Virus record (IMG/VR): IMGVR_UViG_3300035134_000066
Coordinates: 1-25,408 of that record
Length of the DNA: 25,408 nucleotides
Strand: one strand, 5' to 3'
Origin: a virus
Taxonomy: Duplodnaviria > Caudoviricetes
The notes beneath the pieces are model-generated. The model was not told the origin of the DNA, made no database searches, and saw only the letters and a list, made by a program, of their open reading frames with translations. The position numbers and the translations under genes are program-made. Below, piece after piece: positions 2,248 to 22,424 of this stretch; within the stretch, counting starts at the first letter, position 1, and each line of letters opens with the position of its first letter.

Positions 2248-3324
2248 TTAAATATCGTTGATGATATCCTCTGACACCTGGGTTTCCCCGGTTAAATCCG
2301 CCTGGTAAAGTGCATAAGAACACAGTTCGTTAACTTCCTGGGGGGTTTCACATCGATTCGCAATTGCGGTCAATGACTCATCAGTAAATATATCAATGCT
2401 TCCCCCGGCTACCTCTACTTTGTGTTTGATATACTCTTTGACCTGGTCGATTTGAATTTCATTTCCTGCGTTGAAAGGGTCTAATTGAAAAAAGGATAAT
2501 CGCCTTCTGACCTCTCTGAGATTCAAGCTTTGAAGATCACTGACGACCTCTGGTTGTCCTATCAGAACAACTCCCAGCTTTGAGCTATGTACACCCAGTC
2601 CCTCATGGAACCTCTTTAGAGCTTTTAATATTTTGTGCTTCAATTGGTGTACTTCATCGAGAATAAGGGTAATGTTTTTCTTTTCTTTTTTTGCTTTCAT
2701 AACTGCCTTTGCAAGTTCCGTTGCTGTTTGGCGATGGGTTTGGGGCGGTTTTTTTCCCGTAACAGTTTCAATGATCTCCTGTGCGATATAGGATGAGGAG
2801 AAGTCTTCAATAAATAAAGGAGAATAATAAACGACGATATTACGCGGGGATTTGAGTTTTGAAAGAACTTCCTGGATTAGCACCGATTTTCCAGTGCCGG
2901 ATTCTCCGTACACTAAAAGGAAATTGTTTTTCCGGCTTGCTTCAAGAATCATGCCCAGGGCAGTCTTAAAGGTCTGGCTTTTCCAGATTTCATTTTTTGG
3001 GATATTCCCATCCTCGAATGGGTCCTTTTTAAATCCAAATTTCTTAAGAAGTGAATCTGATAACATCATTTTTAAGACCTCCTTTTTTTTCTTTTTGGTT
3101 TCTTTTGGGGGGGTTGGTTTAAATCTTTTTCTCTTTGTATCCTTCTCTAACAGGTTTAAAGCGTTTGCTATTGAATTCAACAAAGAAGTTTTTTTTGTTC
3201 GTCCTTTAAGGGCGTCATTTATTGAGCCTTTTGAGAGACCTACTATATCGGCTATTTGCTGAAATGAGGCCTCTATTTCTATTCGTTTTTGTGCTAACTG
3301 TTGATAATAAGGTATATCATGCAT
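2248..3324 (-). CDS. Transposition AAA+ ATPase (MuB/ExeA-like) with N-terminal HTH
   Basis: Walker A GESGTGKS, Walker B LILDEVH, VLIGQPE, arginine-finger region EVRRR; N-terminal HTH FQQIADIVGLSKGSINDAL; directly downstream of the transposase. Confidence 0.88.
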   Translation of the reverse strand: MHDIPYYQQLAQKRIEIEASFQQIADIVGLSKGSINDALKGRTKKTSLLNSIANALNLLEKDTKRKRFKPTPPKETKKKKKEVLKMMLSDSLLKKFGFKKDPFEDGNIPKNEIWKSQTFKTALGMILEASRKNNFLLVYGESGTGKSVLIQEVLSKLKSPRNIVVYYSPLFIEDFSSSYIAQEIIETVTGKKPPQTHRQTATELAKAVMKAKKEKKNITLILDEVHQLKHKILKALKRFHEGLGVHSSKLGVVLIGQPEVVSDLQSLNLREVRRRLSFFQLDPFNAGNEIQIDQVKEYIKHKVEVAGGSIDIFTDESLTAIANRCETPQEVNELCSYALYQADLTGETQVSEDIINDI

Positions 3325-5080
3325 TGGAACCTCCTTCCGCTGCTTTTCGACCTAATTGAATTAGATCGTATATATCGTCGATGTCCTTTTCAGTAAAGGA
3401 CTTTTTGTCTTTTGCAAGGCTTTCAAATATAGTGATATCTTCTCTATTCAAGCGGCGGCCTAATTTTTTAACAAGTTGCTTTCTGACCTGGTGTCCTGTA
3501 TACTCGACATCTTTGATATCCAGATCGCTGGTAACCTGGATGGTTTTTCCTACTTTCGGGAGTATTGCGGGGGTATCTTTGGGGATAGGGATTTTGAAGG
3601 GGTGGCCGCCTTTGGCTTGTTCTGGTAATTCGACTTTTTCGATTTTTTCAAAGGCTTTTTGGGTTTTGTTTTTGGGTGCTTTCCGGGGTTCTGTGACGGG
3701 AAGGGCATTCAGGCCGAAACCGTCTTGATCTTTTGTTGAAGGTAGAACCGTCAACGTCTGGATATCTGTTCTCAAAACGTTGTCAAGGTTGGTTGTTTTT
3801 GAAGGGTACTGAATTGTAACCGCTCCATTCTTTTCATACTCGAATGGATGGATATATACATCGATCTTTGCACCGTCAGGAAGCCCTTTGACACGATATT
3901 CCGGGCCGAACTCCGCACCCTGAACCTTAAAACTAAATTTCCCCTCTCTGACTGTCCTGGGTTCTGACTCAGAATAGAGTAAAGTTTTATACACACTCCA
4001 TTCCGGGCACTCCCGCAGGTGGTCTCCTATTCGATTGTTCCATTTTTGAAAACGGGGTTGTCCGTGCCGGGAGTGTTTTTTTGTCATTTGAAAGTATAGA
4101 CTATAAGCGAACGCCCATTCGTTCACTTCGTCAATGTCTTTGGGCTTGAATTGGTCAAGTAGAAACACGCTTTCAAACCATCGCTGCCAGACATTTATAT
4201 GCGATTCTACGCTGCCTTTCGTCCAGGGGCTATATTTTTCTAATTTCGGGACTTTGATATCCAGGTATTTGAAGAGCCGCTGCATTGCATAGGAATGCAG
4301 AGCTTTGTCATTATCGATAAAGAGGATATCCGGCAATCCGTGAAAGACGAATTTGTTATTATCTTTGATTGACCAGGCCCGGTATAGGAAATCGGCAATT
4401 TCAATCACCCGTTGATTGGTGTAATATTCGACATAAAAGGCCCCGCTGAGGTGATCTGTAATCACCATCAAACGGAGCTGCTGTTTTTTGAAAAGGGCTT
4501 CATTTTCCGGCTTATTTTTGTTATAATCGCGTTTCCACATGGGTATTAACCCTTTCTCCGGATCAAGGGCAAAATTTGAAACTGAGAAGTCAAGGGAGTG
4601 CAATTGGTTTGCATAATCGGATTTTCTTTCGTTGGTAGGAACCGGCAGCCGGGCATGGCGGCGGGAGAGTTCGAGACGGCGGAGAATATGTCTGAGTTGA
4701 TGGTCACCTGGCAGGTGGTTGGTGCTTTGGCCGCTGAGAATTTCAAAAACCTGCCTTGCCCGTTCAAGAGGCATCCGGCTTTCTTTTGCGTTTATATGTT
4801 TCGTGTGGTGATATACCGCCGCAGTGCCTTTGATTTCTTCCGAATCCTCGAAACGTTCACCCGTTGATCGTAATTTCCCGGCATCTTTTCGGAGTCTTTT
4901 CCCGGACCTCCAGCCTTCTTTCCTGGCCCAGGCATATATAGTTCTTTTATCGTAATGGAACTGCTCTGCAAAGGCTTTGACAATTGCAGTGCAGGTGTTC
5001 CCCTTTTGTGTTGCGGCAGCCATTTTTGCTGCCAGGAGTTTTTTAGTCTCCCTTGAAGGTTTAATTTTCTTTTTCATCAC
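3317..5080 (-). CDS. DDE transposase (MuA-like / integrase core)
   Basis: Catalytic triad LHSLD...LFIDND-(D-x35-E)-KGSVESH; N-terminal HTH-like TIYAWARK and RKDAGK motif; coupled to the ATPase gene. Confidence 0.88.
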   Translation of the reverse strand: MMKKKIKPSRETKKLLAAKMAAATQKGNTCTAIVKAFAEQFHYDKRTIYAWARKEGWRSGKRLRKDAGKLRSTGERFEDSEEIKGTAAVYHHTKHINAKESRMPLERARQVFEILSGQSTNHLPGDHQLRHILRRLELSRRHARLPVPTNERKSDYANQLHSLDFSVSNFALDPEKGLIPMWKRDYNKNKPENEALFKKQQLRLMVITDHLSGAFYVEYYTNQRVIEIADFLYRAWSIKDNNKFVFHGLPDILFIDNDKALHSYAMQRLFKYLDIKVPKLEKYSPWTKGSVESHINVWQRWFESVFLLDQFKPKDIDEVNEWAFAYSLYFQMTKKHSRHGQPRFQKWNNRIGDHLRECPEWSVYKTLLYSESEPRTVREGKFSFKVQGAEFGPEYRVKGLPDGAKIDVYIHPFEYEKNGAVTIQYPSKTTNLDNVLRTDIQTLTVLPSTKDQDGFGLNALPVTEPRKAPKNKTQKAFEKIEKVELPEQAKGGHPFKIPIPKDTPAILPKVGKTIQVTSDLDIKDVEYTGHQVRKQLVKKLGRRLNREDITIFESLAKDKKSFTEKDIDDIYDLIQLGRKAAEGGSNA

Positions 5081-8041: not shown

Positions 8042-8389
8042 TTAGACCTCCTTAATATTGAAATCCTGTCCGTTTATGCCTTTGTATTCAAAGGAATGGA
8101 CTTTGAATACATCCTGGTGGACAGGATACCAGGGGAAGTAGTTCCCCTGTTCAAGAGTTGTGATTATTCTAAAATCGGAATACTCCATTTCAATAGCATT
8201 AAATATGAGAGACTTTGTCATCAATATAAGAAATGTATTAAGCCAATTGTCCGTCTCATCAAAGGCTTTATCCCAGGCATCCTGGTCAAAGTGTTCCGCA
8301 GACATCTCAATAAGATCATAAATTTTTGTTAAGTCTATCATATAAACAATCTCGAAACCTGCAAAAAGCACCTGGATTTTTTGCATCAT
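8042..8389 (-). CDS. Hypothetical phage protein
   Basis: SD AAGGAGGT, ATGA overlap with the upstream gene, operon context. Confidence 0.6.
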   Translation of the reverse strand: MMQKIQVLFAGFEIVYMIDLTKIYDLIEMSAEHFDQDAWDKAFDETDNWLNTFLILMTKSLIFNAIEMEYSDFRIITTLEQGNYFPWYPVHQDVFKVHSFEYKGINGQDFNIKEV

Positions 8390-9198
8390 GAGACCTCCTT
8401 TTTTTTGCTCATATGGTAGATTTTGTCTTTGTCTATACCGGAGCCTTTTTCAAAGTATTCGCAAAGGTGTTCATTTACTGGTGGGAAATCGACAAGAGAG
8501 GTGTACAGTTTCCGGTAGTATTCCAGTTCGTGGAATAGCCATTCTGTGAATTCAGATGCGACCTTGATGTGGCTGATGTAATCAAGCAGTATAAAGACGT
8601 AATATTCTGAAAAAAACAGGGTGTCATCGACGAAATCGGCAAGGGGTGTTTTACCTTCTTTACGGTCAAAATTCTCTGGTAATACGCTATTTTTAAAATG
8701 GAGTGCAAGTTCAAACTGCTTAATTATAAGAGCGAAATTATAGTCGGTGATATACAACACCCCGGTATTTTCATCACGGAAAAAGGCAACGGGGATATTT
8801 TTGTACATCCGGCAAAAAGCGGGTTTAAGGCAAAGCTTTTCCCATACTTTTACTTTTTTGGTTTGAGTATCGGGGGTTATCGGTGCGCGTTGTTTGGCCC
8901 AGGAGACGAATTCTTTTGCTATGGGGAATTCTTTTATAATGTTGGCAAAGCGTTCTACCTGGTATAAGGAAATCATCTGACACATGGTTTTTGATATATA
9001 GGTGGGTTGGCCTATATGAGCATCAACAGTAATAATTTTGTTTTTTGAAATAGAAAGCCCCAGTTGACCTTCTGTAAGAAAGCCCAACGGTTTTGTGAGT
9101 TGGAAGGTAGGAAAGAAGATATTTCCGTCCGCTAAATAGAAATGAATATCAAAGTCATTGAAAAAGTCAGCTTTAAATGGTTTCATCTTTCCCCCCAT
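8386..9198 (-). CDS. Protein with two divergent Bro-N-like domains
   Basis: Two segments show the Bro-N pattern: beta-strands, then IFF..QLTKPLGF...AKEFVSWA, and LYIT...FFSEYYVFILL...ASEFTEWL. Confidence 0.5.
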   Translation of the reverse strand: MGGKMKPFKADFFNDFDIHFYLADGNIFFPTFQLTKPLGFLTEGQLGLSISKNKIITVDAHIGQPTYISKTMCQMISLYQVERFANIIKEFPIAKEFVSWAKQRAPITPDTQTKKVKVWEKLCLKPAFCRMYKNIPVAFFRDENTGVLYITDYNFALIIKQFELALHFKNSVLPENFDRKEGKTPLADFVDDTLFFSEYYVFILLDYISHIKVASEFTEWLFHELEYYRKLYTSLVDFPPVNEHLCEYFEKGSGIDKDKIYHMSKKKEVS

Positions 9199-9833
9199 AT
9201 TTGATTGACTGTCAAGCCTAACATGGCAGCCAGGGCGTCTTTTTTGGCAAACTTGCCGGTATTTATTTCAAGGTACATGCGGGCGGCGGAATCATACTCA
9301 AACATTTTTGCCACATACCCATCGGCCAGGCCGATAGTTCTAATGCAATTCTGAACAATCACATTAGGGGGTAAAGGGATACCGATCGTATCACGGAGAT
9401 ATATCCCGGCGAATGTTTCGCCGGTAGATTCGCGAATCTCACGCAAGAAAGTTGCAGAGGGAAGTTTAGGTTTTGTCTCTTTTTTAACCAGTAACCCTTG
9501 ACGGTAGGCACTGATGATTTTTGCAGCCCATACAACAAAATCCTTTGCAAGTCTGGTATTAGATTTCATCGCAATTATGTAGCAGCCAGACTCATTAAAT
9601 ATGGTTACATCTTGCTTTCCACCGGGTGTAACCAAATTGGTTACCCCTGAAAAACTTTCTAAAATATCTCTGTGCCGTTTGAAAATTTTTAGAACCGCGA
9701 TCCTGGGTTCCGAATAACCCAGTGCTTTACCGATTTCTTCGGCGGTCATCCACAATTGATTATCTTTTTCGATAATGGTGACCTCTTTTTTCCCGAAGTA
9801 CTTGACAAGTTTTTTGGTTTTTGATTGATTCAT
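9183..9833 (-). CDS. Bro-N domain protein (phage antirepressor-like)
   Basis: WMTAEEIGKALGYSEPR...TPGGKQDVTIFNESGCYIIAMKSNTRLAKDFVVWA is a canonical Bro-N motif set; SD AGGAG. Confidence 0.88.
   Translation of the reverse strand: MNQSKTKKLVKYFGKKEVTIIEKDNQLWMTAEEIGKALGYSEPRIAVLKIFKRHRDILESFSGVTNLVTPGGKQDVTIFNESGCYIIAMKSNTRLAKDFVVWAAKIISAYRQGLLVKKETKPKLPSATFLREIRESTGETFAGIYLRDTIGIPLPPNVIVQNCIRTIGLADGYVAKMFEYDSAARMYLEINTGKFAKKDALAAMLGLTVNQIWGER
9628..9644. repeat. 17-bp palindrome GTAACCAAATTGGTTAC inside the Bro-N gene (codons 64-69, VTNLVT)
   Basis: Read directly; same core and flanks (GGTG...CCCTGAAAA) as the upstream array units. Confidence 0.92.
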
Positions 9834-10180
9834 ATTGATACTCCTGATTTTTGGATTTCGTGATATTTGGTCGTAACCAGATTGGTTACGGATGGAATGT
9901 GAACCGTAATCAATTTGATTACGGATGGATATATTAAGGTGTTATCAAATTGATAACACCCTGAAAATTGAACCGTCGTCAAATTGACGACGGATGTATA
10001 ATTTAAGGTGATATCAAATTGATTCCACCCTGAAAATTGAACTGTCATCAAAATGATTACGGAAGGATATCTTAAGGTGTCGTCAAATTGACCACACCTT
10101 AAAAAGGCTTGCGATATCAAATTGATATCAGAAGGGCATGGATTTAAATTTGTGTTAATTCGTGTAATTCGTGGGCTCAT
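9830..10180 (-). CDS. Repeat-encoded ORF spanning the palindrome array (23-aa periodicity)
   Basis: Open frame with ATGA overlaps at both ends (10177-10180 and 9830-9833); whether the protein itself is functional is uncertain. Confidence 0.45.
   Translation of the reverse strand: MSPRITRINTNLNPCPSDINLISQAFLRCGQFDDTLRYPSVIILMTVQFSGWNQFDITLNYTSVVNLTTVQFSGCYQFDNTLIYPSVIKLITVHIPSVTNLVTTKYHEIQKSGVSI
9872..10129. repeat. Array of 8 palindromes/hairpins (core CAAATTG or 1-nt variant), 33-35 bp period, built on a 69-bp two-hairpin unit
   Basis: Palindrome centres at 9881, 9914, 9949, 9983, 10018, 10052, 10087 and 10121; 69-bp units start at 9904, 9973 and 10042. Confidence 0.95.
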
Positions 10181-10380: not shown

Positions 10381-10625
10381 GGGGTATTCTCCTGGTTTTT
10401 TGCCACAGAGGACACAGAGGTCACGGAGGGGATCACCTTTTTTCCTATATAATCCCTGATTACATCATCAGGAATCCATCTAAGGATATCAAAATAATCC
10501 TCAACAGCCTTAACGATTTCGCTAGTGTATACATCGTGGAGAGTGATTTTCATTTGTCGGGATTCGTCCGGTTCTCCAAAATATGGGTCAATTTCTGCCG
10601 ATCGGCATTTAATTATTATTTTCAT
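10377..10625 (-). CDS. Hypothetical protein; C-terminus encoded by a 9-bp-period repeat
   Basis: SD GAGGTG, ATGA overlap; PSVTSVSSVA is encoded by the repeat at 10402-10428. Confidence 0.55.
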   Translation of the reverse strand: MKIIIKCRSAEIDPYFGEPDESRQMKITLHDVYTSEIVKAVEDYFDILRWIPDDVIRDYIGKKVIPSVTSVSSVAKNQENTP

Positions 10626-11470: not shown

Positions 11471-11794
11471 TCAAGCAGCATTAGGGTATCCTTTGATATT
11501 GGCATCAAGCCAGCGGGAAAATTGCAGGGTTTCGCTGCTGCCTACAACACAGCAAAAAGTTTTGAATTCTTGAAAAGATATCAAATAGAATGGAGTTTGC
11601 CCACTCGGGAATGTGACGGTTATAGTTTCAATCTCGTGGTTTTTAAAGGAATCCAGCAAAAAACTTTCCTGGAAGAAACCAGCCGGAGCTGCCAAATCAC
11701 CGGTATCAAGCCAAATTTTACCACTATGATCTTTAAAGATGTGAATAAAACAGCCTTGATAATCGATTCTGCTTTGATAGACAAAATCTCTCAT
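11471..11794 (-). CDS. Divergent Bro-N-like protein
   Basis: IHIFKDHSGKIWLDTGDLAAPAGF...SGQTPFYLISFQEFKTF...LQFSRWL; SD GAGGTG. Confidence 0.55.
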   Translation of the reverse strand: MRDFVYQSRIDYQGCFIHIFKDHSGKIWLDTGDLAAPAGFFQESFLLDSFKNHEIETITVTFPSGQTPFYLISFQEFKTFCCVVGSSETLQFSRWLDANIKGYPNAA

Positions 11795-12088: not shown

Positions 12089-12117
12089 ATTATAACGCAT
12101 ATTTGCTTTACTTTCAA
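12089..12117 (-). promoter_or_regulatory. Early leftward sigma70 promoter
   Basis: Minus strand TTGAAA (12117-12112)-17 bp-TATAAT (12094-12089). Confidence 0.75.
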
Positions 12118-12606: not shown

Positions 12607-12905
12607 TAATTATGGGCGACATTATTTATATGCCAAAATATTTTAATCAAAGTAGTGATTTGATAAATGAAATTGCTTTTGTTATTCAAATACCAGAGGT
12701 AAAGCATATATTTGAAAATGAGATTGATTCTGTCAAAAAGTATTTTAGCGCTGAATTATCTCAATTAGAGCAGAATCAAACGGAAGACGAAGTTGACAAA
12801 TTATTTGGATTAGTAAAGTATAACCCTGTATTGAGAGCCACATTTTTGCAGACATTTTCACGGTATATTTATTATCTCCAAAATACAGGTGCTGGTATTA
12901 GTTAG
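12603..12905 (+). CDS. Hypothetical protein resembling the repressor C-terminal helical module, without HTH
   Basis: Coupled to the repressor (SD AGGAGG; start may be ATG 12612); IQIPEVKHIF and VKYNPVLRATFL resemble the C-termini of both XRE proteins. Confidence 0.5.
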   Translation: MIIMGDIIYMPKYFNQSSDLINEIAFVIQIPEVKHIFENEIDSVKKYFSAELSQLEQNQTEDEVDKLFGLVKYNPVLRATFLQTFSRYIYYLQNTGAGIS

Positions 12906-14815
12906 TTGATAGGTGGAGTCGTAATAATCTTATAAGTTCCGGATTCATTTAATATTATAGCTTGAAAATCTGGCGGAGGGAAAACAAAATCCGTTGAGGT
13001 GAAATTTATAAAGACTTTATCATTCTTGACAGTGTTGATTAAGTTTCCTAATTTAATCAATTCATCATTATTTTTAAGATCATTTGGTGATGTAATATTG
13101 TTGGTTATAATAAGATCAATCTTTTCTCTTGCTATTTCGATTAGGATTAATATAAAAGCCAAATTTGTCTTGTCACTAATATAGGCATTTTTAAGCTTTT
13201 CTATCATATTGGAATCGATATTTTGGCTTGAACCAATAATCTTTTGAAAAAAAGTAATAAGATCGAATAACCTTATGTCTTTGGGGAAAAAAGTATATTC
13301 CGGAATATATAAGAATGGTTTTCTATTTCTAATAATCTTACCATCAATAGTGATCAATCTATTTTCCAATTTACCGAAGAAGATATTTAAAAAGAAATCC
13401 AACACAATCTTGTTATAGTATGTTATGTGGTTATGTTCCCCAATAAGAAAATTTTTCTTTAAATTATTAAAATCTTTCTTATCTACTTTTGGGAAAATAG
13501 ATGCATTAATATTGATATATGTTCTATATGTAACAACAGTTGCATAGAAAACCGTTAGGATTATTCCTAATATAAAGTGAAATGGGATATTGCTTTTTAA
13601 GTTAAGAATGTATTTATCTCCAGTTTTAAAAGGCTTAATTTCCCCCGGTTTTGTCTCTTTAACAAATTTCTCATTAACATAAAAAGCAATAAACTCATAT
13701 TTTGTTTTCTGATTAAAGGAATAAAAATCAATGTAGCTCATTAAACCTCTACTCGATAATTCATCAAATGATGATAAAAAGAATGAAGGTGGGAATAGAG
13801 ATAATAAGAGGTGATTAAATCTTATCTTTGTCGTTATTTCATATTTCCTTCTGTTTTCGAGATTATTAAACTTTCTGTATTCTTTTTTTAGGACATTTGC
13901 AATAAGCTCTCTAATCTCTTTTGGTACTCTATTTCCACTTTTAAATGTTCCTACCTGATCCCTTGCATTCCTTTCCCATTCCATCATTATTTTTAAATTT
14001 TCAAGTCTTATACTATTATTCGACTTCATTACATCAGCGTTTATTTGAGATAATTTATTCAATCCCCAGGGAAGTATAAAAACAGCAAGGAAATAGATAA
14101 TACCTAGCAAAGCAACTTTATTTTTCTTTTTTGAACCAATATAAGCTCCTAACAAAAAGAAAAAAATAATATTCAAACTAATTAAAAAAAAGAGAATATA
14201 TAAAACCCAATTATAAAGATTTAATCCAAATGCCAATAAAACTATCGGTATAGAAAATAAAAGACAGCCAGATATTATGATAGAAATAAGAATACGTGAA
14301 GCAATGGTAAAACATAACGTACGTCTAAGACCTAATAAACTGGAAAGGCATTTCAAATATTCTTTTCTTTTGGTTATATCGAAGCCGTAGATAATACTTA
14401 AAAAAGAACTTAAAAGAAATAATATGCCTGCAAATTCCAAATAGTTTTTTGATCTACTTTTGAAAATAATACTATCCTTGAAAGGCATATATATATCTAA
14501 CGTTTCGCCTGAGTTAATATTTGAATTCATGTCAACAAATTTTCCTGAATTTGAAAAGAGTATAACTGTTATATTAGGAATTACTGATAATCCAATACCA
14601 TAACCGCCATACTGTGTAATAGTGACATAATTTTTAACCTTTTCATCTTCGAAATTTTGATATTCTTTTTTGTTCTTTTGCGAATCCCTGTATGCCATAT
14701 ATCCATCAAGTATGAATGCAAAAAGAATTATCCATATAAGAAGCAATATTATAAAATTTCGCTTTAAAATTAACCTTTTCGCTTCAAATTTGAAAATTGA
14801 AGAAAAAGTTTTCAT
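12902..14815 (-). CDS. ABC-2-type permease-like membrane protein with degenerate ATPase-like C-terminus (accessory gene)
   Basis: N-terminal IFKFEAKRLILKRNFIILLLIWIILF, multiple hydrophobic TM segments, soluble C-terminal region without an intact Walker A; visibly AT-rich. Confidence 0.65.
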   Translation of the reverse strand: MKTFSSIFKFEAKRLILKRNFIILLLIWIILFAFILDGYMAYRDSQKNKKEYQNFEDEKVKNYVTITQYGGYGIGLSVIPNITVILFSNSGKFVDMNSNINSGETLDIYMPFKDSIIFKSRSKNYLEFAGILFLLSSFLSIIYGFDITKRKEYLKCLSSLLGLRRTLCFTIASRILISIIISGCLLFSIPIVLLAFGLNLYNWVLYILFFLISLNIIFFFLLGAYIGSKKKNKVALLGIIYFLAVFILPWGLNKLSQINADVMKSNNSIRLENLKIMMEWERNARDQVGTFKSGNRVPKEIRELIANVLKKEYRKFNNLENRRKYEITTKIRFNHLLLSLFPPSFFLSSFDELSSRGLMSYIDFYSFNQKTKYEFIAFYVNEKFVKETKPGEIKPFKTGDKYILNLKSNIPFHFILGIILTVFYATVVTYRTYININASIFPKVDKKDFNNLKKNFLIGEHNHITYYNKIVLDFFLNIFFGKLENRLITIDGKIIRNRKPFLYIPEYTFFPKDIRLFDLITFFQKIIGSSQNIDSNMIEKLKNAYISDKTNLAFILILIEIAREKIDLIITNNITSPNDLKNNDELIKLGNLINTVKNDKVFINFTSTDFVFPPPDFQAIILNESGTYKIITTPPIN

Positions 14816-14835
14816 TAGCCCTCCCTAACTATATA

Positions 14836-15486
14836 CTATAGGTTCAGAAATATTTGCGATACATATTGCCCAAAAAGATTAATGTAATTATATGATTGGT
14901 TAATCTTCCAGAGTGTAGATATATCAGGTGATTTTTTTCCCATCAGCGTTGATTTTACATAATATAACTTATCTAAAATATCTTTGATGTCTATGTCCGT
15001 TTTTTCGTATACTCCTATTACATTCCCATCTTTAAGAAGATTTTCAACATCTATAAAAATGGATGGATTAAGATTGAAATTATTTTGAAATTCTGTATAA
15101 TTGAAGTTTTTCAGCTTGTCAATTATTCCTAAATCATAAGGAATGGTTTTTGCGGTATTAATTAAATTTTCATATATCCTACTTGCATGCTCAAGATTAT
15201 AGATAGCACAGTTTAGATGTTTTTCCAAAATATAGAAATCAAGTCCATACAGCTCCGCAATTTCTATCTCCTTTAAAAAATGATTTATCGCTGCCTTTGA
15301 TTCAAGAAAATAACTGGCACCTTCAATGATAAAATATCGAAGTGGATGAACTATAATACTTGCAAATTCACCATCTTTGCTACATTGTCCCTCAAATGCG
15401 CAATCCGTTTCGTTATGTACCATTAAAGGAAAAAGGTGTATTACAAATAGAATCGATAATATTAAAAACAAAATTATTCTTTTCAT
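14836..15486 (-). CDS. Secreted hypothetical protein (accessory gene)
   Basis: Signal peptide MKRIILFLILSILFVIHLFP; SD GGAGG; AT-rich. Confidence 0.7.
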   Translation of the reverse strand: MKRIILFLILSILFVIHLFPLMVHNETDCAFEGQCSKDGEFASIIVHPLRYFIIEGASYFLESKAAINHFLKEIEIAELYGLDFYILEKHLNCAIYNLEHASRIYENLINTAKTIPYDLGIIDKLKNFNYTEFQNNFNLNPSIFIDVENLLKDGNVIGVYEKTDIDIKDILDKLYYVKSTLMGKKSPDISTLWKINQSYNYINLFGQYVSQIFLNL

Positions 15487-15648
15487 TTTATCCTCCGATA
15501 ATTCTTTTAATTTTTTTTATTTGCCGGGCGGCCTGGGTAAAAAGTGAGCTATCACTCATTTCTGTTTCCTCTGGAAGTTACTATTAATCTTACATCGCCT
15601 TAAAGTTAGATTATACATATTTGACGGGTTTTGTCAAGCCTTTTTCAA

Positions 15649-15674
15649 TGACAAAATTCGATGTATTTTTGTCA
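15649..15674. promoter_or_regulatory. Inverted-repeat operator TGACAAAA-N10-TTTTGTCA (copy 2)
   Basis: Same arms and spacing as 11361-11386; upstream of the accessory operon. Confidence 0.55.
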
Positions 15675-15688
15675 ATGGGGGAAAGCGG

Positions 15689-15728
15689 TAAGTGGGTGGC
15701 TCTTCTCTTTGGGAGAACCACCCACTTA
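15689..15728 (-). terminator. Stem-loop downstream of the PEGA gene (probable terminator)
   Basis: TAAGTGGGTGG...CCACCCACTTA 11-bp arms with inner TTCTC/GAGAA pairing, 5 nt after the stop codon; no strong U-tract. Confidence 0.5.
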
Positions 15729-15733
15729 TAAAA

Positions 15734-16138
15734 TTATGGAATTGGAACCATTAATGGTTTTGGTTGCTGTTTTTCTAAAACAGCATTGAAATTCTTTTCA
15801 TTAAATACGTACCAACTTCCTGTAGCCGCATCAACAATTACAGGAAGTAATCCGCATAAAACATCAAGGACAATCCATCCCGCTCCAACTTTGTTTGTAA
15901 CTTTGAATATTTGGGGTTTAAATCCATCTTTTCGGACTTCAATGGTATATTCACCCTTTGTTTTCAAACGAAGCGTAATTGGAGTTTGTCCCATCTTTTC
16001 ACCGTTTACCCACACTTCTGCCCCTTCTGGATCAGATGTGGTTTTGATTTTTCCTCTACCGCCTGTGAAGACTGCGGCACATCCACTCAATACAAGAAAC
16101 AAACAAACAATCATTAAAATCGCTATGGTTTTGCGCAT
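15734..16138 (-). CDS. PEGA-domain lipoprotein
   Basis: Lipobox LSGC; TSDPEGAEVWVNGEKMGQTP...YTIEVRKDGF PEGA motif; C-terminal hydrophobic VDAATGSWY. Confidence 0.85.
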   Translation of the reverse strand: MRKTIAILMIVCLFLVLSGCAAVFTGGRGKIKTTSDPEGAEVWVNGEKMGQTPITLRLKTKGEYTIEVRKDGFKPQIFKVTNKVGAGWIVLDVLCGLLPVIVDAATGSWYVFNEKNFNAVLEKQQPKPLMVPIP

Positions 16139-16212: not shown

Positions 16213-16394
16213 GCCACAGAGGACACAGAGGACACAGAAAAAAGCAAAAAAGCTATTGTTAACTGTTTTTTTTGCCGCGAAGGAACGCGAAGAAACGCAA
16301 AGATAAAGGGTTTTTAAAAAAATGACCGATTTTAAAAACGGTCTAAAAAAAGCCGTTTTTGGGGAAAGCCCACGAATTACACAAATTACACGAA
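16213..16394 (+). repeat. Cluster of three 9-bp-period short repeat elements
   Basis: GCCACAGAGGACACAGAGGACACAGA (16213-16238), GCCGCGAAGGAACGCGAAGAAACGCAAAG (16274-16302), GCCCACGAATTACACAAATTACACGAA (16368-16394). Confidence 0.85.
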
Positions 16395-16488: not shown

Positions 16489-16553
16489 AAATTGGTCAAC
16501 TTTTGACCAATTTGAGCCAAAATTTGCATTTTGGTTTTATCCTGGTGTATAAT
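16489..16553 (+). promoter_or_regulatory. Palindromic operator plus promoter of the second XRE gene
   Basis: AAATTGGTCAA-CTT-TTGACCAATTT (16489-16513); TTGCAT-18 bp-TATAAT (16524-16553). Confidence 0.55.
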
Positions 16554-16570
16554 TAAACGAGGTGATTAGT

Positions 16571-16993
16571 ATGGAATTAAAGAAAGATCAAATAGGAATA
16601 AGGTTTAAGACGTTTAGGAAGAGAATAAAGAAAAAAAGAAAAGATATCGTGGCTTTGACATCTCAAACTTACAACGTAGTGAAAAGTATTGAAAACGGCA
16701 TTAGTGCGCCATCTTCAAAACTTCTTATTGTACTTTACAGAGAGTATAACTTAAATATAAATTGGCTTCTAACCGGCAATGGAAGTATGTTTGTTGAGAA
16801 TGTGATGCCTGTAGAAACCGGGGAAACCCTGGACGATTTCAGAGAGTTTAAGTTCTATATGGAAAATGTCCCTTTTGTCAGGTATGAAGTCTTGAAGTAC
16901 TTTTCAATATTTAAGTGGGAACAAAAGGAAAGGATAGAAAGGTATCTCAAAGAAAAGGGCATTAAATGGGAAATAGAAATGCCCACCTCTTAG
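16571..16993 (+). CDS. Second XRE-family HTH regulator (paralog of 12169-12606)
   Basis: IGIRFKTFRK...SIENGISAPS...LNINWLLTGNGSMF; start placed at ATG 16571 after SD GAGGTG. Confidence 0.82.
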   Translation: MELKKDQIGIRFKTFRKRIKKKRKDIVALTSQTYNVVKSIENGISAPSSKLLIVLYREYNLNINWLLTGNGSMFVENVMPVETGETLDDFREFKFYMENVPFVRYEVLKYFSIFKWEQKERIERYLKEKGIKWEIEMPTS

Positions 16994-19975: not shown

Positions 19976-22424
19976 TTTTTTTAGCCGCGAAGGCACGCGA
20001 AAACACGCAAAGAAGAAAAAATCATCTCTAAAATACAACCGGGGAGTACTTCCCTCCGGGGGCCGATCCAGCGTTGAAGATACTCTTAGTAATTTGATTT
20101 CCGGGATTGATAGTTTCTACGGAGTTGTAGAGCCGGATTTCCCGGTTGAATATCTCCATATCATCGACTACCTTTCCATATATCACCCCGATATCTCGAA
20201 AGCCGTTTCCGATATGGTGTCTATCGCAAATTCAGGACATGAAATTGAAGCCGTCGGAAAATCGGATAACGAAATCATGAATGCAATGGCTCGAATCAGT
20301 TCAAAGGCCGCTAACATATACCCCTATTCTGCCGGGGTAGACGGCTTAATCAATCAGTATATCCGGCAGCTATTTTGTTTTGGTGCCCTCTCCTCTGAAG
20401 ATGTCATTCAACCTGACTTTGCCGGTGTTGAGCGTGTTGTGACCGTTCCTGTCAGACAAATCAGGTTCAAACGAAAAGACGGAGAAATAGTCCCTTATCA
20501 GCAGACTTCTACTTTTATTCATCAAAAAACAAACGAATTGGGATTAGTCGAGCTTAACCTTGAAACGTACCGTTATTACGCACTTTTCAAAACTGAAAAG
20601 ACACCTTATGGGATTTCTGCCCTATTAAGTGCCTTAATGCCGCTGGGTATTCAATCAAAGGTATTTCCCAATCTCGACTCAATCATGAAAAATATGAGAC
20701 TCCTGGGATTGAATATCGCCAAAATTCCACCCCCCCCAGAATTTGAGGCGGATGAGGACCCCGATACATCCCGGCAAAAATACCAGGCTCATATCCAGGA
20801 ATTTGTTGATATTTTAGGCACCGATTCATACAAACATGGCTTTATGGGCGTACCTTTGGAGATCGAATTTGAAAATTTCCCTATCAACCCTAACATGAAG
20901 GGAATGGCGGATATCGGCAATATGATCAATCGGTATCTTTACACCGGAATCAAAAGCGATGCCGGATTGCATAATGACCATGTTAGCCGCACCGAAACCT
21001 TTCTCCTGGTCATATACAAGATATTTCTACATTTTGCTCTAAATATCAGGAATATTGTTAAAAGAAGGGTCGAGAGAACCTACTTATTCGACTTACTACT
21101 TGCAGATATTCCTATTGAAAGTATCTCCCTTTCCTTCAATAAGGATTCAGCACTCAAACCCTACGTAGACCGCCTGGCTGAAAGAACACATTCAGGAACT
21201 GTTTTGAATTTACTCAAAAACGGGGTGATTTCCCCACCACGGGCCGCAAACCTTCTCAATGAAAAAGAGTTCTATGATGAAGATCTTTTCTATAAATCCA
21301 TTACGGAAGCGGGCCTGAAAGTAAAAAAGTTTTCCTGGATTGCCAATAGACAAAAATACATGCCTGTTGAAAACCCTTTCGAGATTCAAAACTATAAAGC
21401 CACAGAGGACACAGAGATCACAGAGAGTAAAGAATTAGCCACAAAGGCGGTCGGCGACCGCAGCCAAAAAACGAATGAACACGAAGAAATAAAGAGTTTC
21501 AAGAAAGAAGATACCGAAAAAGAACGGGCTGAAAAAGTACGGGAAAAGCTAAATCAATCTATAGAACAGTACCTTAAGAAAGTATTACCCTATTTCGACG
21601 AACTAGGCCAGGACGTAACCGATTACGCCGCTGGATACTGCCAGGAACATATCGAAGAGATTTCCGAAAATTCAGAAGTATTGAAAAAAGCAGTCATTGA
21701 GTATATCCGGGAACACCCGGATTATAAAAAGATCAAAAACCCGGATTCCTGGCTAAGGAAAACAAGTGAAGCCATAACCATTAAAGCAGGAAAAGACTGG
21801 CTTGAAAAGGATGATACAATCTTTGGGGGAAAAAAGCCGGATGTCAAGTTCGTTTTCGGTGAAGGCGATAGAAACGCGATGAAATTCTATTCCCGCCTGC
21901 ATACGTTCTTTTTCAGCAGCTTTATTGACAATAAAGGATTTGGATCCAAAATTGACGGTTTTGTCAATGGCTTTCTTGAACGGGGAGAGGCCCTGTATGG
22001 CGGATGGACTGATGCCATTGAAAAAGAATTCAACAGGCTTTTTGCGGATGCAATACAAGGGGATTTCCGGTTTCAGGTTGAAAGAATAGTCAATACCGGG
22101 ATGGCAAACATCAAAAACCGGTCACACGTGATTCAACTCGACCAGGCCGGGTTCAAAAAAGGGAGAATAAACGGCTATTTGGAAACGGATTGTAAAATTT
22201 GCAAGCCGCTTCATACAAAATTAATCGAAGTATCTGCTCTGATGAAACAGGTCACGGCTCTTGAATCCGCCGAAACCCCGGAAGCTGCCCTGGAAATTAT
22301 CAAAAAGCAAAATGTCAGTATAGATGAAGCCAAAGACATCAAAGCACTTGTAAAAGCCGGTAAAGGGCTGCCGCCCTATCACCCGAACTGCAAATGCTTC
22401 GTGGAGGGACACTTTGAAGACTAA
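19959..22424 (+). CDS. Portal protein fused to head-morphogenesis (Mu gpF / SPP1 gp7-like) domain
   Basis: Follows the terminase; portal-like TPYGISALLSAL and GVISPPRAANLL; C-terminal CKIC...LPPYHPNCKC signature. Confidence 0.75.
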   Translation: MSLFTNFFSREGTRKHAKKKKSSLKYNRGVLPSGGRSSVEDTLSNLISGIDSFYGVVEPDFPVEYLHIIDYLSIYHPDISKAVSDMVSIANSGHEIEAVGKSDNEIMNAMARISSKAANIYPYSAGVDGLINQYIRQLFCFGALSSEDVIQPDFAGVERVVTVPVRQIRFKRKDGEIVPYQQTSTFIHQKTNELGLVELNLETYRYYALFKTEKTPYGISALLSALMPLGIQSKVFPNLDSIMKNMRLLGLNIAKIPPPPEFEADEDPDTSRQKYQAHIQEFVDILGTDSYKHGFMGVPLEIEFENFPINPNMKGMADIGNMINRYLYTGIKSDAGLHNDHVSRTETFLLVIYKIFLHFALNIRNIVKRRVERTYLFDLLLADIPIESISLSFNKDSALKPYVDRLAERTHSGTVLNLLKNGVISPPRAANLLNEKEFYDEDLFYKSITEAGLKVKKFSWIANRQKYMPVENPFEIQNYKATEDTEITESKELATKAVGDRSQKTNEHEEIKSFKKEDTEKERAEKVREKLNQSIEQYLKKVLPYFDELGQDVTDYAAGYCQEHIEEISENSEVLKKAVIEYIREHPDYKKIKNPDSWLRKTSEAITIKAGKDWLEKDDTIFGGKKPDVKFVFGEGDRNAMKFYSRLHTFFFSSFIDNKGFGSKIDGFVNGFLERGEALYGGWTDAIEKEFNRLFADAIQGDFRFQVERIVNTGMANIKNRSHVIQLDQAGFKKGRINGYLETDCKICKPLHTKLIEVSALMKQVTALESAETPEAALEIIKKQNVSIDEAKDIKALVKAGKGLPPYHPNCKCFVEGHFED

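Follow-up and report, generated by a model that had tools for sequence, protein, structure and literature searches.

The window analyzed here, a stretch of 25,408 nucleotides, is an incomplete Mu-like phage in which Pfam and PHROG matches identify a transposase, an AAA ATPase, a DUF3164 protein, a divergent HTH repressor, a terminase and a capsid protein. An array of eight palindromes is located in its leftward early gene run. Downstream of the array, in the same co-oriented run, are the Mu-like transposase (3317-5080, minus strand; PHROG 310, E 1e-31) and the AAA ATPase (2248-3324, minus strand; Pfam AAA_22), and only 39 nt separate the array from the start codon of a Bro-N gene (9183..9833, minus strand) with a Shine-Dalgarno-like sequence at 9841..9845 on the same strand. 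The encoded protein of 216 amino acids combines an N-terminal Bro-N winged-helix domain (PF02498, E 8e-14, 52.4 bits against a cut-off of 25.6) with a predicted C-terminal XRE-type HTH, and it also matches PHROG anti-repressor families. A search of PDB sequences with this protein gave no match below E 0.2. Its AlphaFold2 model (mean pLDDT 87) resembles P22 c2 (Z 8.2, rmsd 2.8, 63 aligned) and, at middling Z scores, Mbp1 (Z 6.8, rmsd 3.3, 88 aligned) and the DNA-binding domain of pSK1 Par (Z 5.7, rmsd 1.9, 53 aligned). Residues 43-53, encoded at 9675..9707 on the minus strand, form the second HTH helix in the model, the predicted recognition helix, and residues 62-69 form the first strand of a beta-hairpin wing. 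Within that strand, the codons for wing residues 64-69 hold a ninth member of the palindrome family (9628..9644, centre 9636), which the original prediction did not include.

The array itself is spanned by a stop-free frame of 116 codons (ORF116; 9830..10180, minus strand) that overlaps both of its neighbors by ATGA, as is also seen at four other junctions of the leftward early run. Such a frame was open in 2.9% of simulated repeats, a figure that leaves the overlaps uncounted, and five of the palindromes fall in the wing reading frame within it. ORF116 has no Pfam family, no credible PHROG family and no homolog, and its top Atlas score was 0.83, with low recognition. It is likely to be at most a translated spacer, with translation carried on through the array. 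The best promoter-like match for the leftward early operon (12089..12117, minus strand; 11/12, a consensus match only) lies ~2 kb upstream, and the array would fall within an early transcript starting there. The search for promoters found 10 matches, against 7.2 in shuffles, and a single one of them, a 9/12 match on the plus strand (10122-10150), overlaps the array. A reading of the array as the Mu enhancer (IAS) was dropped because of its distance, about 2 kb, from the repressor and early promoter region.

Several further features of the window were recorded. A separate palindrome with perfect 11-bp arms (16489-16513) lies just upstream of a second HTH gene (16562-16993) and is a possible operator. 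Two ORFs, 8386-9198 and 11471-11794, have no Pfam or PHROG family, look by eye like degenerate Bro-like domains and carry no palindrome matching the array; the former has one homolog, at 79%. In run X1, possibly the source of the window, one contig covers 8530-10175 with zero differences. Between the repressor and the late genes, the block at 12902-16138 holds three non-phage-looking genes (a membrane protein, an unknown and a PEGA-domain protein), and its contig depth in X1 is lower, about 12 against 17-20. Tandem repeats of 9-10 bp occur at 10147-10173, 10404-10429, 16215-16303, 19977-20013 and 21401-21426; these short repeats are common to many other X1 contigs and probably represent a host-type dispersed repeat.

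Geometry and symmetry of the array

The palindromes reported in the original prediction were all found where they had been placed. Their centres, at 9881, 9914, 9949, 9983, 10018, 10052, 10087 and 10121, reproduce the claimed spacings of 33, 35, 34, 35, 34, 35 and 34 bp, and a spacing of 34.5 bp corresponds to a non-integer number of helical turns. The proposed 69-bp unit was borne out by TRF (period 69 bp, 3.0 copies, 79% matches, score 265), the middle six palindromes being three copies of a unit composed of an A and a B type. A search of the window with the pattern GTNRYCANWNTGRYNAC, built from these sites and allowing at most one mismatch, gave 7 matches against 0.30 expected, all at the array locus.

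Each palindrome can be assigned to a class by its arms and to a type by its flanks. Unit 1 (9872..9890), with A-type flanks and a centre 48 nt upstream of the Bro-N start codon, is the sole ACCA site in the array. Units 2 (9904..9924; A-type, ATCA class), 3 (9938..9960; B-type, ATCA class) and 4 (9973..9993; A-type, GTCA class) have perfect arms of 9, 10 and 9 bp, respectively. Farther from the gene, unit 5 (10007..10029; B-type, ATCA class) has two mismatched pairs, unit 6 (10042..10062; A-type, ATCA class) is asymmetric, and unit 7 (10072..10102; B-type, GTCA class) forms 13/14 pairs. Unit 8 (10113..10129; ATCA class) has 7-bp arms and linkers unrelated to those of the other units.

The arms had been described as symmetric throughout. 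Symmetry is perfect in units 1-4, those nearest the gene, and over positions 1-7 of unit 8, but is broken in the units centred at 10018, 10052 and 10087; these three broken units (5-7) could reflect decay. Across arm positions 1-8, 58/64 cells are paired; exchanging right-arm bases at random between units gave a mean of 46.1, and 58 was reached in 1/100,000 shuffles, a test that ignores the relatedness of the array copies. The two innermost pairs, as well as pair 7, are constant in 8/8 units, and every unit has the CA-N3-TG core in common. The linkers had been described as largely conserved, but are roughly as variable as the arms: 7/23 linker columns vary across the three 69-mers, against 10/28 arm columns. 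Template-switch correction at hairpins is an established mechanism that maintains palindrome symmetry without selection. Given this mechanism, and given that three distal units are asymmetric, the case for a symmetry that requires selection or active regeneration is incomplete.

Regular units of ~35 bp with constant and variable parts, carried on a phage, bring CRISPR and TIGR arrays to mind. The array nevertheless departs from CRISPR in the way originally pointed out, since its variable part is itself the palindrome, which moreover mirrors a site in the adjacent gene. Palindromes and linkers are both related copies with a 69-bp period, unlike unique unrelated spacers, and a Pfam scan of 33 of the 86 listed ORFs of this incomplete contig found no Cas family. 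In TIGR-Tas systems a Nop-domain Tas protein is encoded beside the array, which is processed to unit-length RNAs; no Nop family was found among the 33 proteins, and several neighbors of the array are without any family. The 'CRISPR' described near a Bro-N gene in Liberibacter prophages consists of constant repeats about 3 kb from that gene (PMC4711790). A transcript processed to ~35-nt RNAs, or RNA structure acting in termination or antitermination, would fit the folding of the sense strand (-103 kcal/mol, z -8.5) and the U-run that follows unit 4 on that strand with a terminator-like score. Any palindrome array, however, would fold likewise, two Rfam matches fall far below gathering scores, and the pairs are strictly Watson-Crick and covary with the DNA-binding helix (see below). 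Together with the lack of Cas and Nop-domain proteins among those scanned, these points leave us giving very little credence to an RNA role.

Palindromes within Bro-N genes and the recognition helix

The best 150 of 3,327 cluster-representative matches, together with two further homologs, provided 168 aligned domain rows. Where wing DNA is palindromic, the identity of residue 68 follows from bases 1 and 2 of codon 65, and the same holds outward. This reverse-complement codon rule is obeyed by residue pair 65-68 in 94/165 domains, against 28.5 after shuffling, and the pairs 63-70, 65-68 and 64-69 are the top 3 among 664 tested, both results applying to the set drawn from the best 150 of 3,327 matches. 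At the DNA level, each arm position from 1 to 10 pairs in 26 to 36 of 42 distinct domains. Arm position 5, which is synonymous in both arms, is paired in 29/31 core-intact genes against 10.5 expected; about eight of the 42 domains were retrieved with a pattern in which the core, but not position 5, was fixed. The palindrome in the wing codons of Bro-N genes is maintained at the DNA level.

Palindrome type covaries with a small number of residues elsewhere in the domain. The test used the 86/168 rows that could be classed, omitting 76 that break the codon rule and 6 of rare types. In these 86 domains, z is 18.3, 9.4, 5.8 and 5.8 for residues 49, 46, 45 and 52, and at most 2.1 at residues 53-64. 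Outside the wing these four are the only positions of strong covariation, and they lie on helix 43-53 with spacing i, i+1, i+4, i+7. Lysine or arginine at residue 49 is found in 52/58 ACCA- or GTCA-type domains (the remaining 6/58 are exceptions) against 0/28 ATCA or CTCA domains, and asparagine in 17/18 ATCA domains; L079, in which K49 accompanies a wing palindrome of ATCA type, is another exception. Among 12 genes of the GTCA class, synonymous position 5 is C in 4/4 with E52 and in 0/8 without it (p 0.002), an association that protein-protein contact cannot account for. Lysine and arginine prefer G, asparagine A and glutamate C, and the covarying residues and bases agree with these known preferences.

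Palindrome class is largely independent of the Bro-N scaffold tree, and its distribution is close to random: on a tree made without helix and wing there are 39 changes of class against 44 when shuffled, and nearest neighbors share a class in 27/86 cases against 24 expected. Where neighboring pairs belong to different class groups, residue 49 also differs in 26/30. Helix and wing have been exchanged as a block between L117 and L118, so that shared ancestry of the module may contribute to the covariation. PCG2, a fungal APSES relative, is reported to read its site with the wing and not with the helix (PMC4862756). The occurrence of in-gene palindromes across the family, together with the covariation of helix residues, makes it likely that the palindrome of each Bro-N gene is bound by the protein which that gene encodes, probably in dimeric form.

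Some individual loci deserve mention. L117 and L118 are near-identical genes with ~300 nt of shared upstream sequence and a single differing block, comprising helix and wing; their palindromes differ, a module swap of the specificity region with no array nearby. L079 carries a second in-gene palindrome, of ACCA type, 101 nt before the wing one and a better fit to its A46/K49 helix. At L106, a stand-alone intergenic palindrome of ATCA type lies 122 nt upstream of a K49/GTCA gene; this pairing does not follow the code in a simple way, and the palindrome is a possible non-self site.

The Bro-N protein of the window has I45, A46, K49 and K52 at the covarying positions, and I45, A46 and K49 make up an ACCA-type helix. 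Its in-gene palindrome (9628..9644) is a putative self-operator, and unit 1, whose arms match the in-gene arms at 14/14 bases, is the predicted cognate operator within the array. Unit 2, which differs from unit 1 by a single paired change, is the only other site in the window with 2 or fewer mismatches to these arms. Unit 1 does not appear to be a plain copy of the gene segment, since it has array-type flanks, a loop unlike that of the in-gene site and only one paired change from unit 2.

Specificities represented in the array

Eight distinct half-sites are present in the array: four types other than the window's own, as well as its own, occur in-gene at other loci, and three were not found. 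The half-site of unit 2 is present in-gene in L151, those of unit 6 in L079, L142 and L151, and those of unit 7 in L107/L122 and L088/L136; the arms of unit 4 are identical to the in-gene sites of three E52 genes, L107, L121 and L122. No gene of the 25-kb window contains an in-gene partner of units 2-8. All unit variants belong to the three commonest classes among the homologs, and the closest subfamily has alleles of all three array classes.

We propose, at roughly even odds (about 50%), that the eight palindromes constitute a bank of Bro-N binding sites for several specificities, one of them cognate. Two of the options raised in the original prediction, a library of variant sites and an operator array, gain support here from the family palindrome carried by the Bro-N gene and from the family-wide covariation of helix residues. 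According to this proposal, unit 1 would have been selected as the cognate operator of the window's Bro-N, units 2, 3, 5, 6 and 8 (ATCA) would suit N49-type proteins, and units 4 and 7 (GTCA) would suit K/R49-type proteins, with E52 for CGTCA arms. The weakest step concerns how such a bank might act. Lying in the early transcript ahead of the Bro-N and transposition genes, it may allow foreign regulators, those of co-resident or sibling elements, or a swapped-in allele to damp that transcript; alternatively, the bank may titrate such regulators once the phage replicates. It is tempting to speculate that the code is self-referential, each Bro-N allele spelling its own operator, and that the phage uses a master-key array to eavesdrop on or sequester the regulators of competitors while tolerating a swapped-in helix-wing module, a broader scheme that we consider possible but doubtful.

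The half-sites of units 1-4 differ from the in-gene site at 0, 1, 2 and 3 positions, increasing with distance. This order, along with the core and pair 7 shared by all units, might be expected if every unit bound the window's own Bro-N with falling affinity, as a cooperative autoregulatory roadblock or a sink. The variants, however, are the site types that accompany other helix residues, and the 34.5-bp spacing sets neighboring units on different faces of the helix. Weak operators, furthermore, usually need no symmetry. A graded array of sites for a single protein is, in our judgment, quite unlikely.

The origin of the units can be sought in the Bro-N gene itself. In the frame of the ORF, the A units read Y-x-S-V-x-x-L-x-T-V, which resembles natural wings (P0072), and B-type units are accompanied (at 9959-9967 and 10028-10036) by a copy, displaced by one base, of the 9-nt flank of the in-gene palindrome (9645..9653). 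Because of this wing-like reading and the gene flank beside the B units, both types look like fragments of wing-coding Bro-N DNA. The proposed bank may have arisen when a 69-bp unit with two sites, assembled from wing-coding fragments of two Bro-N alleles, was amplified in tandem. Wing palindromes that are already in tandem within Bro-N genes, at distances of 33 bp in L114, 45 bp in L116 and 75 bp in L112, would offer a route to such an array. Across L114, L116/L130, L112 and L127, we observed tandem wing palindromes in one gene and tandem Bro-N genes with palindromes differing at a synonymous position.

The array might instead be a relic in which only unit 1 and the in-gene site work. Units 2-8 would then be former operators, belonging to past alleles or to sister genes that have decayed; slippage would have amplified them, template switching at hairpins would have maintained their symmetry, and they would have no present role. 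Such a relic would account for asymmetry that is limited to distal units 5-7, for linkers that have diverged as fast as the arms, for B units that retain the flank of the window gene's wing as if from an earlier allele, for the tandem wing duplications inside other Bro-N genes (L114, L116, L112), and for an array found at one locus only. It accommodates less readily the invariance of the inner two pairs and pair 7 in 8 units while linkers drift, the perfection of units 2-4 across 9-10 bp, the restriction of all variants to the three commonest natural classes, and a frame that is open and coupled at its ends when 2.9% of simulations kept it open. We regard a relic as unlikely; were units 2-8 to prove relics, the array would still be a record of past specificity switches.

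The units could also be donor cassettes from which gene conversion would overwrite the in-gene palindrome and so diversify the wing strand. Their cores are in register, on either strand all of them (8/8) are stop-free over wing positions 64-69, and the alleles they would supply look natural, VVKLTT being present in 10/167 rows, VVNLTT in 7 and VTKLVT in 7 of the set drawn from the best 150 of 3,327 matches. Moreover, unit 1 represents the current allele, and B units bear the 9-nt flank. Against this, the flanks are short, with that of the B type one base off and then running into an in-register stop, and unit 1 has array-type flanks and a different loop. The helix codons that vary with site type are absent from the units, and a cassette swap would therefore uncouple site and protein. 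Wing alleles also vary at 41 other, array-less domains, and L117 and L118 exchange helix and wing together. Among the 33 scanned proteins there is no recombinase or reverse transcriptase except the Mu-like transposase; a PHROG invertase match (E 0.034) covers just an HTH-sized stretch of a 98-aa ORF. The single run X1 contained no variant contig, although contigs drop rare variants. We therefore consider donor cassettes very unlikely, and prefer the bank of binding sites.

Related sequences and known systems

The original prediction held that absence of the array from close homologs would count against it. Arrays of at least 3 such palindromes upstream were found at 0/41 other distinct Bro-N domains, a result that tells only in part against the prediction, as none of these belongs to a close relative of the prophage; the nearest homologs, L117 and L118, are 44-47% identical. 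One such palindrome lies within 800 nt upstream at four of the 41. Searches for closer relatives returned 2 other homologs by word search, 0 in a first metagenome scan, and the window's own contig only in two viral protein scans.

Pattern scans were similarly unproductive. The first viral scan gave 77 loci, among which the Bro-N profile matched the window's own contig alone; 14 of its palindrome-cluster loci were inspected and set aside, as they looked like iterons or single-consensus sites. The second gave 5 loci, 4 of them foreign, and inspection of their ORFs showed none adjoining a Bro-N gene. A scan of genomes gave 9 loci, and the 5 inspected were REP-like repeats and a sugar-operon operator. 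BLASTN of the array found no match in 50,697 phages and a single match, L200, in 72,556 plasmids (30 nt, E 0.02). The L200 match is a stand-alone, perfect palindrome of unit-2 type, nearly identical to unit 2, directly upstream of a plasmid Bro-N gene that no longer carries a wing palindrome of its own and encodes N at residue 49, in agreement with the code; its product is a distant relative (17% identity) and a single case. This plasmid gene lies downstream of parAB and has a ~40-nt direct repeat at both sides (1174-1213 and 2096-2135). Within the repeat lie another palindrome and one half of the operator-like site, an arrangement that looks like insertion of the gene as a cassette.

Phage operator arrays and iterons resemble the array in clustering palindromic sites of a winged-helix or HTH protein, in some cases within the gene for that protein, and here too the palindromes are tied by sequence to a DNA-binding protein. 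In operator arrays and replication iterons all copies approach a single consensus that serves a single protein, whereas those in the window depart from one another symmetrically and correspond to several predicted specificities. Palindromes of the same shape occur within predicted replication-initiator ORFs of L066, L075 and L019. HK022 Roi, implicated in lytic growth (PMC3430580), is likewise an antirepressor-like protein.

The closest published analogue of the proposed operator bank is the BstA/aba system (PMC8585504). BstA, which is encoded by a prophage, has a DNA-binding domain of KilA-N-like type and is matched to a short variant-specific element in its own locus, and the aba element is also active in trans at high copy (PMC8585504). 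The window differs in that its palindromes lie at wing codons and upstream, that eight variants are arrayed, and that no defence activity is known; an element across the gene start with terminal direct repeats, which along with abortive infection characterizes BstA/aba, is not seen here. The Bro network of phages and satellites, in which module swapping is typical (PF02498; PMC10111431, PMC9043618), shares with the window a Bro-N member in the phage early region. Bro-N is among the commonest phage DNA-binding domains. The main texts of these two papers name no DNA site for it, use the string 'palindrom' 0 times and present no in-gene palindrome, helix code or multi-site bank (PMC10111431, PMC9043618). 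Our search of the openly accessible literature found no description of in-gene Bro-N palindromes or of such arrays, and no paper showing Bro-N binding such a site.

The covariation described here predicts Bro-N sites straight from gene sequence, by a residue-to-base code in which K/R49 goes with G-bearing arms, N49 with ATCA and E52 with C at position 5. The array would provide a natural panel of predicted sites, with unit 1 as its internal positive control. If units 2-8 were bound by foreign Bro-N alleles, mobile elements would have a new route for cross-talk or competition, one that resembles BstA/aba yet covers several specificities.

Palindromes with a CAAWTTG core were also seen in other settings. 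At seven loci of one actinobacterial genome (L096-L104) they occur as dispersed paired repeats, and at L066, L075, L019 and L093 they form iteron-like clusters within the predicted replication-initiator ORFs. At L005, KilA-N-like and Rha-like genes, named by eye, flank four intergenic palindromes of this kind whose arms differ, possibly a similar bank for other families.
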